A stretch of DNA of 64,000 nt, from positions 18,595-82,594 of the IMG/VR virus record IMGVR_UViG_3300020196_000016. One strand, 5' to 3'. The position numbers and the translations under genes were made by a program. Source of the DNA: a virus. The notes beneath the pieces were generated by a model. It was not told the DNA's origin. It did no database searches and saw only the letters and a program-made list of their open reading frames with translations. Within the stretch, counting starts at the first letter, position 1. Each line of letters begins with the position of its first letter. Below are positions 1-8,794 of this stretch, piece by piece.

Positions 1-90
1 TAATAGTTCGCTTGGACCATAACTATAACTTGAAACATATAAGAGCGTATCTCCACCAGATAGAAAAAGATCACCAATGTTATATTTCAT
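1..90 (-). CDS. Small GDL...PVVK paralog family member (partial, runs off window)
   Basis: ATG at 90 overlaps the stop of the upstream endonuclease (ATGA); reads MKYNIGDLFLSGGDTLLYV... Confidence 0.7.
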   Translation of the reverse strand, partial: MKYNIGDLFLSGGDTLLYVSSYSYGPSELL

Positions 91-872
91 TTTACAACTG
101 ATGTTTGAACTTCGCTATGTTTTTTGCGTTTTTTTGCTTCACTCAATTTCTTTTTATGTTCTTCGCTAAGTTTTTTACCAATATTTGCTTTCCTCAACTT
201 CTGTTTTGTTTCTTCGCTCATATTCTTATTTACTTCACTCAATTTCTTTTTATGTTCTTCGCTAAGTTTTTTACCAATATTTGCTTGACTTATTTTCTTT
301 TTTGTTTCTTGACTGAGTTTTCTGCCAGTCAACGCTTCACTTATTTTCTTTCTTGCTTCTTTGCTGGACATTCTGTCTTTTGCCGCTTCACTTATTTTTT
401 TTCTTGTCTCTTCGCTAATATTTCTCTTTGCTTCACTTATTTTTCTTTTTGATTGTTCGGTATGTTTTCTGCCTGTCAAAGCGACACTTCTTTTCTTTCT
501 TGTTTCTTCACTTATGTTTCTGCTTGCTTCGCTCATTTTCTTTCTTGTTTCTTCGCTGTGTTTTACACCAAGAGGAGAACCGGCAACTTTACATATGTTA
601 TAGCCTCTATCGTCTTCATAAGACTTATAATAATCTAAATAAACTTGCTCGTATGCCAATAGGTGTTCTGGGTTTGATACTTCTTCTATTATATCAAATG
701 TGAAACTTTGTTCGCCATATTTATTCCAGGCTTTTTGTAAGTGTTCGGAATGATGTTTTCCTTCTTTTAGATAATGCTTATGTTGGGACCATCTTTTATC
801 AATATTGACTGCCGAACCAATATAAACCTTGTTGTTTTTTATATTTTTTATTAAGTAAATGCCACTTTTCAT
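87..872 (-). CDS. GIY-YIG homing endonuclease with NUMOD3 repeats
   Basis: SGIYLI...VYIGS motif, GYN motif, repeated HSEETRKKMSEA-type units. Confidence 0.93.
   Translation of the reverse strand: MKSGIYLIKNIKNNKVYIGSAVNIDKRWSQHKHYLKEGKHHSEHLQKAWNKYGEQSFTFDIIEEVSNPEHLLAYEQVYLDYYKSYEDDRGYNICKVAGSPLGVKHSEETRKKMSEASRNISEETRKKRSVALTGRKHTEQSKRKISEAKRNISEETRKKISEAAKDRMSSKEARKKISEALTGRKLSQETKKKISQANIGKKLSEEHKKKLSEVNKNMSEETKQKLRKANIGKKLSEEHKKKLSEAKKRKKHSEVQTSVVK
136..283. repeat. Direct repeat (~53 bp, 96-bp period) encoding NUMOD3 units
   Basis: cttcactcaatttctttttatgttcttcgctaagttttttaccaatatttgctt occurs twice. Confidence 0.85.
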
Positions 873-892
873 ATAATTCTCCCTTATATGAG

Positions 893-899
893 TAAGTAG
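893..899 (-). promoter_or_regulatory. Putative late-promoter motif CTACTTA upstream of the GIY-YIG gene
   Basis: Variant of the CTA(T/A/C)TTA motif found before several probable late genes. Confidence 0.45.
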
Positions 900-901
900 T
901 T

Positions 902-1084
902 TTAAATTAATGTTCTGCCTTCTTGTTTACCATTGAGAAACTTGATGGTAATATATTTAACTGTTTTACCATCTGGATTGAATTCATCTGTATATTGAAT
1001 ATCAAGAACATAAATACAAGTTCCATCTTTGGTATACATAAGATCGCCAAGGGATAAATTTATTTTACTGGATAATACTTCCAT
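902..1084 (-). CDS. GDL family member, lacking the PVxK end
   Basis: INLSLGDLMY; ends at the endonuclease promoter region; start uncertain. Confidence 0.55.
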   Translation of the reverse strand: MEVLSSKINLSLGDLMYTKDGTCIYVLDIQYTDEFNPDGKTVKYITIKFLNGKQEGRTLI

Positions 1085-1254
1085 AATTTTTCTTCTATGA
1101 AATGATCAACTTGTTTTCTTTTCCAAGTTAATTCAACTGGCGGATTTTGGTTGAGATATAGGAGAAACTTTACATTATAGACATTTACAGCAACAGCAAT
1201 CATTTTTGCTTCGCTGGTTGTTTCTATAAATAAATCTCCTATACTATATTTCAT
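1060..1254 (-). CDS. GDL...PVK family small protein
   Basis: MKYSIGDLF...WKYYPVK. Confidence 0.85.
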   Translation of the reverse strand: MKYSIGDLFIETTSEAKMIAVAVNVYNVKFLLYLNQNPPVELTWKRKQVDHFIEEKLWKYYPVK

Positions 1255-1460
1255 TCTATATACTTGCCCACAATATCCTTTTCAACGAAATAATAGAACT
1301 CATTTACAAAACCACAAACAATCACTTTATATTCGTTTGTATCAGTTATCTTCCAGCGTTCCATGATAAGTACTGGCTTATCCTGAAATCGTTCAAGGTG
1401 GAGCATTTTACGAATTTTTACAACATCTCCAATAGCATATGCGTAATCAGTTGTGTTCAT
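1251..1460 (-). CDS. GDL-family small protein (SH3/KOW-like)
   Basis: YAIGDVVKI; ATGA overlaps with neighbours. Confidence 0.75.
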   Translation of the reverse strand: MNTTDYAYAIGDVVKIRKMLHLERFQDKPVLIMERWKITDTNEYKVIVCGFVNEFYYFVEKDIVGKYIE

Positions 1461-1690
1461 TTTTTCACCGGATAATACTTCCAGTTTCTGTGTGATATTG
1501 TATCTGGATTGAACATATGTTCTATGTTATCTGGATACATTATTCGTTTTCTCATTCGTATGCCTTTTGTTGGATTGAGAAGAATAAGAATATATTTTTT
1601 AGTATTACGTTCTTCGTCATACTGAACATCAGCCACATAATACACTTCACTATTAAGCAATACAAATAAATCACCTAAATTAATCTTCAT
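1457..1690 (-). CDS. GDL...PVK family small protein
   Basis: MKINLGDLF...WKYYPVKK. Confidence 0.85.
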   Translation of the reverse strand: MKINLGDLFVLLNSEVYYVADVQYDEERNTKKYILILLNPTKGIRMRKRIMYPDNIEHMFNPDTISHRNWKYYPVKK

Positions 1691-6866: not shown

Positions 6867-7691
6867 CTATGGAATAGAATTAAAAATATGAGCGATAACG
6901 TCTGCCGTCCAACCATTTCCAATCATCTTATAACGATGACAGTCGGCAACGTTGCTGGTATAGTTATCTGGAATAGTTTGGAGTCGTTCACATTCAATTG
7001 GAGTTAGACGACGCTTGAAACCAAGATCAACATAAATACCATCAGTTGGTTGTTTGTAATAACCAGCAATAAGTGTTCCACACTTGTCTTGGGTTCCATC
7101 ATAAAAGAAACCACGACCACGCTCTGTATTCATAACCCTATCAATCTTGGCTTGTGAAAGGGCATATTTCCGATCAGCATTTAGTTCAAGAATATCTTTC
7201 ATCTTGATATTTTTATCGTCTGGCTGATTGATGTTTGGAATATTAGTCCAATACAAACGAGGACGATTCTGTGCTGATACAAGTTTACTGTTGATTTCAA
7301 TAGGTTGAACACCCAATTCATCAGAAATAATATCTCGCCATTCCCGCTTCATCTTTACATTTTCGAGAAGAAAATAGGTTGGTTTAATTTCTTTCAAGAT
7401 ACGGGCATATTCCCAAAACAAACCACTCTTACCATTAAATCCTGTTCCACTTCCAGCAGTTGAAAATGACTGGCAAGGACTTCCACCAATAAGCAAATCA
7501 ATATTGGGAAGATTAGAGGAATTAATATCTTTTACATCTCCAAGGTGAATGGTCTTTGGATAGTTATGTTTAGCAACTTTGATTGCGTGTGAATCAATTT
7601 CTGCTGCGTAATAATCGGTGTATTCAATACCAGCACGATTAAGAGCAACTTGACCGCAACTCATACCATCAAAAAGACTTAAAACTTTCAT
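6867..7691 (-). CDS. DNA (cytosine-5)-methyltransferase
   Basis: LSLFDGMSCG (motif I), GGSPCQ (IV), LENV (VI), QNRPRLYW (VIII), IGNGW (X). Confidence 0.95.
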   Translation of the reverse strand: MKVLSLFDGMSCGQVALNRAGIEYTDYYAAEIDSHAIKVAKHNYPKTIHLGDVKDINSSNLPNIDLLIGGSPCQSFSTAGSGTGFNGKSGLFWEYARILKEIKPTYFLLENVKMKREWRDIISDELGVQPIEINSKLVSAQNRPRLYWTNIPNINQPDDKNIKMKDILELNADRKYALSQAKIDRVMNTERGRGFFYDGTQDKCGTLIAGYYKQPTDGIYVDLGFKRRLTPIECERLQTIPDNYTSNVADCHRYKMIGNGWTADVIAHIFNSIP

Positions 7692-7692
7692 A

Positions 7693-7941
7693 TCACACCT
7701 TTGTAAATGATTTATTCAGATCACAATAACTTTCATCCCACCTTGAAGGTGTTGCGTTCTTTTGTGAAAGTAAAGTCCATCCAATATGAGTATCACCATA
7801 TACATCTTCAAACTCACCATAATGGGTTACAACAAAATAATCACCTTGATCTACATCTTCTTCTAAATCTTCATTCTTTCCAGCAGTAATCCTCATATCA
7901 TCTTTTGAACGGAGAATATCACCAACTCGGTATTTCATCAC
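7693..7941 (-). CDS. GDL-family small protein
   Basis: MKYRVGDIL. Confidence 0.75.
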   Translation of the reverse strand: MMKYRVGDILRSKDDMRITAGKNEDLEEDVDQGDYFVVTHYGEFEDVYGDTHIGWTLLSQKNATPSRWDESYCDLNKSFTKV

Positions 7942-8147
7942 TTCACCACAGGATAGTGTTTATAAACATTATAATCAACAAAATATTTTAAATGATATCC
8001 AGCGAATACTTCTTCTCTGCTTTCTGATGGGATATAGAAAGTGTAATATATATCTTTATCGTCTCTATCTATATCAATAACAATAAAACTCCGGGTTCCT
8101 TCTTTGACACGGGTATCAATAAACATATCACCAATGTTGTATTCCAT
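7938..8147 (-). CDS. GDL...PVVK family small protein
   Basis: MEYNIGDMF...YKHYPVVK. Confidence 0.85.
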   Translation of the reverse strand: MEYNIGDMFIDTRVKEGTRSFIVIDIDRDDKDIYYTFYIPSESREEVFAGYHLKYFVDYNVYKHYPVVK

Positions 8148-8494
8148 TAGATACCACTTCTATTCTTGTAATCAACAGCATCAGCAACTTTGACGCAAGA
8201 ACCTTGTGTTTTATTGAGGTTTTTATACTTGGTACAGTTCGCAATATTATTAGTCATATTGGAACCCTTATTCTTCAACTTTGTAGCATTAATAAGATAT
8301 TCTGTAAGTCGTGGGTCTGAATTAATTTGCAGTTCGCTCGCCGTTTTGTGTCCGTAAATTGGAACACCCGTATATTTTACAGCAGTTTCGCCTTCTTCGC
8401 CACATTCAGCACATTGTGTATATTTACCACGAGCGTTCTTGTCCTTCAACTTTGGATCATATTCAAGACCACAAGTTTCACAACATAGAAACAT
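8147..8494 (-). CDS. Zinc-ribbon protein
   Basis: CETC...CAEC; probable start at 8494 after GAGG RBS. Confidence 0.7.
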   Translation of the reverse strand: MFLCCETCGLEYDPKLKDKNARGKYTQCAECGEEGETAVKYTGVPIYGHKTASELQINSDPRLTEYLINATKLKNKGSNMTNNIANCTKYKNLNKTQGSCVKVADAVDYKNRSGI

Positions 8495-8529
8495 ATAAAT
8501 ACCTCGTCGGATCTGTGGGGGATCGGGGT

Positions 8530-8558
8530 ATCGTAGCACACTAAACGAAGAAACGCAA
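8530..8558 (-). promoter_or_regulatory. Sigma70-type promoter
   Basis: TTGCGT-17bp-TACGAT, extended -10. Confidence 0.75.
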
Positions 8559-8575
8559 GCGGAAGTAAATGCGGG

Positions 8576-8794
8576 TTACTTCTTTTTTATATTCTTTGAT
8601 CTTGGAAGGTACTTATAATCTTGTTTTAATATCTTGTTATTGAGTTCCCATTTGCTTATTTTTGTTTCTTTGCCTTCCCAAAGAACTTTTATATGCCTTA
8701 TTAATATTCCAACAACAAGACCACTTTTTATCTCTTTTGTATCAACTAATAAATCGCCTATATTGAATATTATTTTTTTAAATACTTGTTTCAT
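8576..8794 (-). CDS. GDL-family small protein
   Basis: FNIGDLL...YKYLPRSK. Confidence 0.8.
   Translation of the reverse strand: MKQVFKKIIFNIGDLLVDTKEIKSGLVVGILIRHIKVLWEGKETKISKWELNNKILKQDYKYLPRSKNIKKK

Follow-up and report, generated by a model that had tools for sequence, protein, structure and literature searches.

The DNA described here is a 64,000-nucleotide stretch (the window) that comprises bases 18595-82594 of the 82,594-bp IMG/VR virus record IMGVR_UViG_3300020196_000016, a record that is 46% complete by CheckV, so that a whole genome of about 180 kb would be expected. Its left end carries an array of small genes belonging to one family, whose members start with a variant of xVGD and commonly end in aromatic-x-aromatic-P-V-x-K. 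A profile hidden Markov model (HMM), seeded with the nine open reading frames (ORFs) bearing both end motifs and iterated over the 642 six-frame ORFs of at least 35 amino acids (aa) in the whole record, converged on 28 ORFs at an expectation value (E) of 0.01 or below, and the reversed-sequence control gave no match at E<=10. Five further ORFs, termed subtype II, start with MKYxVGD like the family and have a different C-terminus; on iteration the subtype HMM draws in the main family, and a joint HMM recognises 36 of the 642 ORFs, again with none in the reversed control. These members divide into 22 in the window and 14 upstream, and one member spans the left edge of the window, ending at 90. 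Added up by gene length, the family occupies about 8.3 kb, some 10% of the record. The members lying wholly or partly in the window are as follows.

1..90, minus strand: N-terminal part of a 76-aa member crossing the left edge (genome 18454-18684); HMM E 2.9e-12, external orthologues up to 85% identical
902..1084, minus strand: member, 60 aa, without the C-terminal motif; joint HMM E 4.5e-7
1060..1254, minus strand: member, 64 aa; HMM E 7.1e-20
1251..1460, minus strand: subtype II member, 69 aa; subtype HMM E 8.7e-26
1457..1690, minus strand: member, 77 aa; HMM E 5.5e-18
1687..1896, minus strand: member, 69 aa; HMM E 6.1e-13
1886..2137, minus strand: member, 83 aa; HMM E 3.6e-14
2134..2358, minus strand: member, 74 aa; HMM E 1.2e-15, dN/dS 0.27 against related locus L082
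2345..2536, minus strand: member, 63 aa; HMM E 5.5e-17, dN/dS 0.28 against L082
2536..2760, minus strand: weak member, 74 aa; HMM E 8.6e-4
2993..3220, minus strand: member, 75 aa; joint HMM E 4.5e-13
4289..4768, minus strand: two-domain (tandem) member, 159 aa, an orthogroup of its own; domain 1 E 6e-9, domain 2 E 1.4
4778..5020, minus strand: member; HMM E 5.8e-20, likely true start the ATG at 4990, overlapping the upstream stop as ATGA
4987..5223, minus strand: member, 78 aa, structure modelled; HMM E 2.9e-23
6072..6278, minus strand: member, 68 aa; HMM E 2.9e-20
6275..6520, minus strand: member, 81 aa; HMM E 1.1e-14
7693..7941, minus strand: acidic member, 82 aa, without the C-terminal motif; HMM E 1.1e-4
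7938..8147, minus strand: member, 69 aa; HMM E 6.3e-19
8576..8794, minus strand: member, 72 aa, with a basic tail; HMM E 3.6e-10
14448..14699, minus strand: member; HMM E 2.3e-17, likely true start the ATG at 14681, overlapping the upstream stop
14678..14917, minus strand: member, 79 aa; HMM E 1.8e-13
44618..44803, minus strand: solitary member adjoining a dnaE-like polymerase gene; HMM E 1.1e-12
50298..50543, minus strand: solitary member, 81 aa; HMM E 1.1e-12

Exactly 18 of the joint-HMM members fall in 1-8794, in accord with an earlier note on this DNA that had counted about 18 ORFs in the first 8.8 kb. That note had also listed nine ORFs elsewhere, which divide: those at 14448, 14678, 44618 and 50298 belong to the family, and those at 12069, 18581, 21601, 30404 and 30597 have no joint-HMM match at E<=10. 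These five (12069-12290, 18581-18865, 21601-21927, 30404-30616 and 30597-30842) carry a generic xVGDxV start, go unrecognised by the family HMMs and may be other small-barrel proteins. The description of fixed ends around barely alignable middles is borne out by the alignment of the 28 sequences of the main family (A1), in which the G is invariant (28/28), the D is present in at least 90%, P-[VI] lies within the last 10 residues of 19 of the 28 members and mean column identity is 20%. The only near-constant features of A1 are this G, the D and the C-terminal aromatic-P-V.

The predicted structure places both fixed ends inside the fold. An AlphaFold2 (AF2) model of the member at 4987-5223, built from A1, has a predicted local distance difference test score (pLDDT) of 91.9 and a predicted template-modelling score (pTM) of 0.81, with strands at residues 16-18, 24-32, 39-46 and 53-58, a helix at 59-68 and a last strand at 72-74; the block-mean pLDDT is 97 for residues 11-20 and 93 for residues 71-78, so that both ends are modelled as strands of the fold. 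When the model was compared with 48,161 chains by VIA-align, the top match was DUF1653 (3be3, Z 6.5 over 68 residues), followed by BAH domains (Z 6.0-6.1), CarD (4l5g, Z 6.0; 9e7v, Z 5.7) and the C-terminal Tudor domain of UvrD/PcrA (7egs, Z 5.5; 5dma, Z 5.0), with the TraI translocation-signal domain, VapX, FeoA, EF-P domain I and NusG/Spt5 KOW domains lower down. The top rows are all small SH3/Tudor-like barrels and cover 52-69 of the 78 model residues at Z 5.0-6.5. A structure search of the ESM Atlas returned DUF1653 and CarD_TRCF_RID at TM 0.57-0.63, and WGR, Tudor, chromo, eIF5A and DUF1653 domains appear among weak Foldseek rows. The family thus resembles DUF1653, the CarD RID, the UvrD/PcrA C-terminal domain and BAH/chromo-barrels in its predicted barrel structure, but DUF1653 and the Tudor-like barrels have no sequence-profile match to it and their scores are within the range of a common arrangement. 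The bar taken for more than a common arrangement is Z 8, and since every structural score lies below it, membership of a named family is unsupported. The earlier suggestion of an SH3/KOW/Tudor-like scaffold therefore survives, weakly, as a predicted fold class, an SH3/Tudor-like small barrel. The KOW Pfam model (PF00467) matches none of 28 members, the nearest approach being one member with KOWx_SPT5 at E 0.092, far from threshold.

Searches by sequence profile place the family in no curated collection: no Pfam, PHROG or NCBIfam family and no PADLOC model was matched by more than one of the 28 members. The Pfam models of DUF1653 (PF07866) and CarD_TRCF_RID (PF02559) match none of the 28 at E<=0.1, the PADLOC anti-phage defence models yield no family at E<=0.01, and a single member matches phrog_1945 (unknown function, E 2.7e-6). 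A feature search of the ESM Atlas gave a best score of 0.89 and no family. The sole sequence-profile match in the PDB, the gp41-1 intein at E 0.0096, was taken as chance. We know of no case in which DUF1653 or another Tudor-like barrel family forms a tandem multigene family in a phage.

One member had been read in the earlier note as a tandem fusion. Domain 1 of the 159-aa protein (4289-4768) is recognised at E 6e-9, and its second half has its own HIGDM start and LPVVK end, although the HMM gives domain 2 only E 1.4. The AF2 model of this protein is poor (mean pLDDT 62.8); residues 70-159 (block-mean pLDDT 60-85) nevertheless show the order strand-strand-strand-strand-helix-strand of the single-domain model. 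The tandem orthogroup comprises 15 external clusters 51-86% identical, with orthologues 92% identical in L086 and 55% in L082, and its alignment has 35 invariant columns and a ratio of non-synonymous to synonymous substitution rates (dN/dS) of 0.23.

Each member shares 22-36% identity, with indels, with its nearest paralog in the genome, which argues that there has been no recent duplication. Most members do have external relatives 60-100% identical, and the member at 4987-5223 has 33 external relatives that are at least 45% identical over at least 70 residues; in the set compared, five of 33 members are without an external relative at 70% coverage or more, and four more have none above 40% identity. 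The checks of selection and of presence or absence proposed in the earlier note gave dN/dS of 0.11-0.63 in six family pairs drawn from the window and related loci, all below 1, against 0.07-0.35 in seven neighbour pairs, and cassette sets that differ between relatives. By these substitution ratios the tested members are under purifying selection. In the comparison with L083, the cassette that always follows the DUF7227 gene (below) has dN 0.375 and dS 0.60. For DUF7227 in the same genome pair the values are 0.027 and 0.38, which means that the cassette's protein changes about 14-fold faster than that of the neighbouring gene. Conservation reaches at least 90% at the ends across the cassette's orthogroup of 34 sequences, and entropy peaks at residues 19-24, in the model the loop that follows the first main strand, and 49-54, a loop and the start of a strand.

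Turnover of members between phages can be followed around the DUF7227 gene, which served as anchor for comparison with a single IMG/VR locus and with ten loci from metagenomes, among them one that is the same contig as the IMG/VR locus. The features concerned are these.

5230..5952, minus strand: DUF7227 gene, context, the anchor between two cassette slots; Pfam PF23872 E 1.9e-77
6052..6532, minus strand: two-cassette block, present or absent in natural populations; contig joints 6051->6533
87..872, minus strand: GIY-YIG/NUMOD3 homing endonuclease inside the array, not a family member; Pfam GIY-YIG E 4.6e-12, NUMOD3 E 1.3e-19

The upstream slot, between a conserved 49-aa gene (6520-6669) and DUF7227, holds two cassettes in the window, none in L086, three in L091 and four plus a GIY-YIG endonuclease in L082; in L087, to which L089 is identical, it holds two with no detectable similarity to the window's two. 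The downstream slot, between DUF7227 and either the tandem gene or a 152-aa gene, holds two cassettes in the window, four in L086, eight in L082, at least four in L083 and five, without the tandem member, in L087. The slot flanks have 75-98% DNA identity between loci, and the cassettes align only as short matches of 31-72 nt (75-96%) at gene junctions; the homology blocks have 32 unique ends, of which 16 fall no more than 30 nt from the boundary of a family gene, where 19% are expected (p 7e-5). Related phages thus differ in how many cassettes, and which ones, stand between the same conserved flanks. In public lake runs, the joint 6051->6533, found in the X14 contig (shorter side 115 letters, 10 shared) and the X19 contig (25 letters), skips exactly the cassettes 6072-6278 and 6275-6520, the arrangement also seen in L086, and a 10-nt direct repeat stands at both edges of the block (6052-6061 and 6533-6542). 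At least one cassette block is therefore polymorphic within natural populations. Four other joints (1184->7979, 4782->4970, 5002->6258 and 5013->5269), with sides of 20-30 letters, were set aside as possible repeat or assembly effects, and stretches lacking coverage in X17 and X19 were left out of account. The endonuclease at 87-872 has four NUMOD3 repeats, and because its homologues, 47-71% identical, occupy different array positions in relatives (L082:1392-2057, L082:6585-7556, L088:123-914 and L091:1477-2121) it is evidently mobile within the array regions. The DUF7227 protein itself, 240 aa and Cys-rich, is the best-conserved gene product of the region, at 74-96% identity in the 10 metagenome loci.

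Most neighbouring members overlap by 1-4 nt, as ATGA or TAATG, and their junctions are alike as DNA. Segments of 54 nt anchored on the GD codon have a mean pairwise identity of 0.44 compared with 0.30 for gene interiors, and exact shared runs of at least 12 nt, the longest of 21 nt, occur in 27 of 528 pairs of junctions and in one of 528 pairs of interiors. Codon choice at the end motif depends on what follows: next to the conserved Pro, Val is encoded by GTG in 30 of 43 family genes that stop -1 to +5 nt from the next start and in 3 of 21 others (Fisher p 4e-5). Genome-wide, GTG accounts for 9% of Val codons and CCG for 12% of Pro codons. GGTG, contained in CCG-GTG, is complementary to part of the 3' end of 16S rRNA. 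The bias towards CCG-GTG where the next gene overlaps suggests, as a reading of codon usage, a built-in ribosome-binding site. Where no gene follows, as at 44618-44803, the C-terminal motif is kept as protein with other codons, and therefore constraints at the protein level and at the nucleotide level both act. Neither promoter-like sites (sigma-70-like, 43 in 1-9500 as against 44.9 +/- 6.9 in shuffles) nor terminator-like sites (6 against 4.4 +/- 2.0) are enriched in this region. The non-family 49-aa gene upstream of the two-cassette block has the same style of junction, ending LVK-stop with GGTGAAATAATG.

Among 1.84 billion representative proteins, 232 clusters match the family at E<=1e-3; in the 150 matches listed all proteins are 60-94 aa long save three (151, 147 and 655 aa), and of the 66 matches indexed by word none is named beyond 'hypothetical protein' or has a Pfam domain. 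The 655-aa protein (P0188) was rejected as a member, matching only the N-terminal half of the profile, in four stretches; it looks like a repeat protein of non-family, generic xVGDxV barrels. Fused forms of 155-2000 aa number none among 8000 candidates, which is weak evidence, and searches of viral contigs for related loci with the member at 4987-5223 and with P0022 returned none. The contig of L082 (G001), a close relative, has 36 matches in 36.4 kb in a six-frame search with A1, four other close fragments have one to five each, and close relatives L002-L007 have one or two members within 10 kb of their polymerase gene, in keeping with the solitary member that adjoins this gene in the window. 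In five records of 118-162 kb with a polymerase 62-63% identical (best segment) there are 0, 1, 0, 0 and 3 matches, all weak and partial. The copy count by HMM that the earlier note had proposed hence comes to 28, then 36, of 642 ORFs here and to few weak matches in more distant relatives, and on these sequence comparisons the expansion is specific to this phage lineage. What the array represents is a deeply diverged multigene family of at least 36 members, stand-alone proteins of 60-90 aa with a predicted SH3/Tudor-like barrel, whose overlapping genes run among the accessory genes of an uncultured lake phage. A literature search, which did not extend to supplements, found no paper on a phage multigene family of such kind.

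We lean, if not strongly, towards an explanation in which an old family of small barrels is maintained as chained and shuffled cassettes, their junction doubling as translational coupler and recombination site and their products being binders directed at the host. The N-terminal xVGD strand and the C-terminal aromatic-x-aromatic-P-V-x-K strand would, judging from the model, probably close the barrel. The codons of that C-terminus (CCG GTG ... AAA TGA) would probably have a second use, providing the gene that follows with a Shine-Dalgarno-like GGTG and an overlapping start; shared end codons could in this way let any cassette chain to any other. The conserved junction of about 40 nt would offer a short homology for gain, loss and swapping of cassettes, and the GIY-YIG homing endonucleases scattered in the arrays may aid this exchange. 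During infection each protein would probably bind, as a single domain, a target in the host or in a rival phage, the variable loops and strands conferring specificity. The binder-library, anti-defence or host-takeover role envisaged in the earlier note would be compatible with the concentration of variation in loops, the bimodal isoelectric points described below and the turnover of cassettes. A bolder form of the proposal, tentative and rather doubtful in its entirety, sees a recombinase-free cassette system in which termini of about 40 nt encode three things at once, namely the closing of the barrel, ribosome binding and initiation for the gene that follows, and homology for exchange between co-infecting phages; the lake population would then share a pool of mini-binders, of at least 232 clusters at 50% identity, from which each genome holds a different hand against host defences or for takeover.

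Several results weigh against the favoured explanation or fail to bear it out. All fold matches (Z 6.5 or less) are under the Z 8 bar, Foldseek finds no match in the PDB or BFVD at E<=0.001 (best E 0.28 and 0.017, respectively), and in the tandem protein the model of domain 1 (residues 1-62, pLDDT mostly below 50) is unusable. Homology that ends at gene boundaries is expected for any whole-gene replacement. The well-supported population indel uses the 10-nt repeat just outside the coding motifs and not the conserved junction, and the joints that do fall inside the junction motif have sides of 30 letters or fewer and are unreliable. The pooled codon test includes orthologues, which are not independent, and in the window's own genome alone the GTG bias (8/12 against 1/7) has p 0.057. 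The unenriched promoter-like and terminator-like sites fit polycistronic, translationally coupled arrays, but they give no timing of expression.

The closest process described is the modular shuffling of T4-type hyperplastic regions, in which small non-essential genes lie between conserved blocks, whole genes are inserted, deleted or replaced between close phages, and a short repeated intergenic element, the promoter-early stem-loop (PeSL), is proposed to mediate the shuffling (PMC2839356, PMC4122927). The array resembles these regions in its runs of small genes, whole-gene turnover and short repeated element. It differs in that the PeSL element is a non-coding promoter plus terminator and the genes it shuffles are unrelated ORFans, whereas here the repeated element is a coding end and start and the genes are of one family; moreover, the genes here overlap without a spacer, and promoter-like and terminator-like sites are not enriched. 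Integrons, too, hold stackable cassettes in one orientation and of variable number, expressed as a chain and sharing a boundary element, and in the stacking, the single orientation and the shared element the family arrays are like them. An integron was rejected on three counts, as there is no tyrosine recombinase (PF00589) in the 46%-complete record (the control matched all 14 genomes), no attC-like non-coding site, and the cassettes are paralogs rather than unrelated genes.

An unlikely alternative is that the proteins are RNA- or DNA-binding regulators that act on phage or host transcripts, tuning how stable they are or how they are translated. Binding to nucleic acids is frequent among small SH3/Sm-like barrels, the structural matches include CarD, EF-P domain I and the KOW domains of Spt5/NusG (Z 4.5-6), and 14 of 33 members are basic, with an isoelectric point (pI) above 8. 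Charge is bimodal, however, 13 of the 33 being acidic with pI below 6, so that the members have no common charge, and A1 has no conserved basic patch that can be read. The Sm fold has an N-terminal helix before its strands, whereas the helix of our model is C-terminal (59-68), with none at the N-terminus. The model for such regulators would be the T4 early proteins GoF, MotB.1 and Frd.2, which are reported as dissimilar proteins of predicted LSm-like fold and unknown wild-type function, one mutant of this group stabilising an mRNA (PMC12152347). On that account they are the closest described proteins, very dissimilar small phage proteins with a common predicted small-barrel fold, but they number three, where the present family has at least 36, and they are longer (141 and 119 aa) and have the helix on the other side of the barrel. 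Nor is there a detectable sequence relation, hhalign giving A1 a probability of 0.6% with GoF and 0.06% with MotB.1.

It is similarly improbable that the cassettes are selfish or near-neutral passengers, without a specific cellular target, spread by junction recombination and by hitch-hiking with homing endonucleases. That one slot holds from none to four cassettes in otherwise similar phages means that none of those is essential, and GIY-YIG genes at differing array positions in the window, L082, L088 and L091, speak for this reading, as does the junction microhomology described above. Against this stand a dN/dS below 1 in six of six family pairs, orthogroups conserved at 51-92% over many clusters, a fold predicted to be well packed, and the high copy number kept in every close relative seen with the array region. 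Large phages carry many small, uncharacterised genes. Here about 10% of the record is given to one family of small genes with a confident predicted fold, purifying selection and visible gene-by-gene turnover in lakes, and this makes it a tractable case in which to ask what mini-barrel arrays bind and whether a coding junction doubles as translational coupler and recombination site. Should members inhibit host defence or machinery, the 232 or more clusters would offer a natural library, ready to use and built on a single scaffold; should they be dispensable passengers, they would exemplify selfish cassettes inflating phage genomes.

A role as modulators of RNA polymerase, through the kind of Tudor-like surface with which CarD, Mfd and UvrD/PcrA bind the beta subunit, is quite unlikely. 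CarD (4l5g and 9e7v) and the UvrD/PcrA Tudor domain (7egs and 5dma) are indeed among the best structural matches, and CarD_TRCF_RID clusters are found in the ESM Atlas at TM 0.59-0.60, but these scores tie with those of many unrelated small barrels, the Pfam CarD_TRCF_RID model matches none of the members searched, and it would be difficult to account for 36 different proteins all binding one surface. Less probable still is that the fixed termini are targeting signals, for instance for capsid packaging and injection, and the variable remainder cargo. T4 internal-protein loci do pair a fixed end with a variable rest, as here, but both ends of the family proteins are modelled with high confidence as strands of the fold (pLDDT 97 and 93) and not as a detachable peptide, and the 46%-complete record contains no structural or protease gene (none structural among 10 large ORFs scanned) that would tie the family to the virion. 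An active diversifier such as a diversity-generating retroelement has a negligible chance of being the source of the variable middles, its one support being the word 'hypervariable' in the earlier note, which is apt for deep divergence but not for active hypermutation, as the closest paralogs are 22-36% identical with indels rather than near-identical repeats, they have conserved orthologues, and no reverse transcriptase (PF00078) is present in the 46%-complete record, control genomes having matched.

The phage that carries the family has no close cultured relative, its DnaE-like polymerase sharing no more than about 30% identity with the phage records among the 15 matches listed. In IMG/VR 530 stretches encode a related polymerase, six of them (L002-L007) 82-95% identical over the full length and L008 90% identical with partial cover, the remainder being about 61-65% identical. 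The array region is present in 24 lake or freshwater DNA runs; no RNA run is listed among them, which carries no information on expression. The minus strand carries all ORFs of at least 150 aa that no longer ORF shadows, and the genes of the record include those for the DnaE-like polymerase, a DnaB-like helicase, ribonucleotide reductase (RNR) and a GroEL-like chaperonin. Further genes placed in the window are the following.

6867-7691: C-5 cytosine DNA methyltransferase, within the array region; Pfam E 4.6e-46
14082-17453, minus strand: four tRNA genes, Ile-TAT, Leu-CAA, Lys-TTT and Thr-TGT
25741-27315: GroEL-like chaperonin; phrog_5725, E 2.4e-125

A DNA megablast of window positions 1-9000 gave a 53-nt match as its only result, in the methyltransferase genes of two Bacteroides phages, to which this stretch of the methyltransferase gene at 6867-7691 is 90.6% identical. 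Upstream of the window, at 11000-15000 in genome coordinates (L001), lies a 4-kb island of 55-61% G+C (GC) in a record of about 30% GC, with ORFs on both strands that include two similar ORFs of 132-169 aa.

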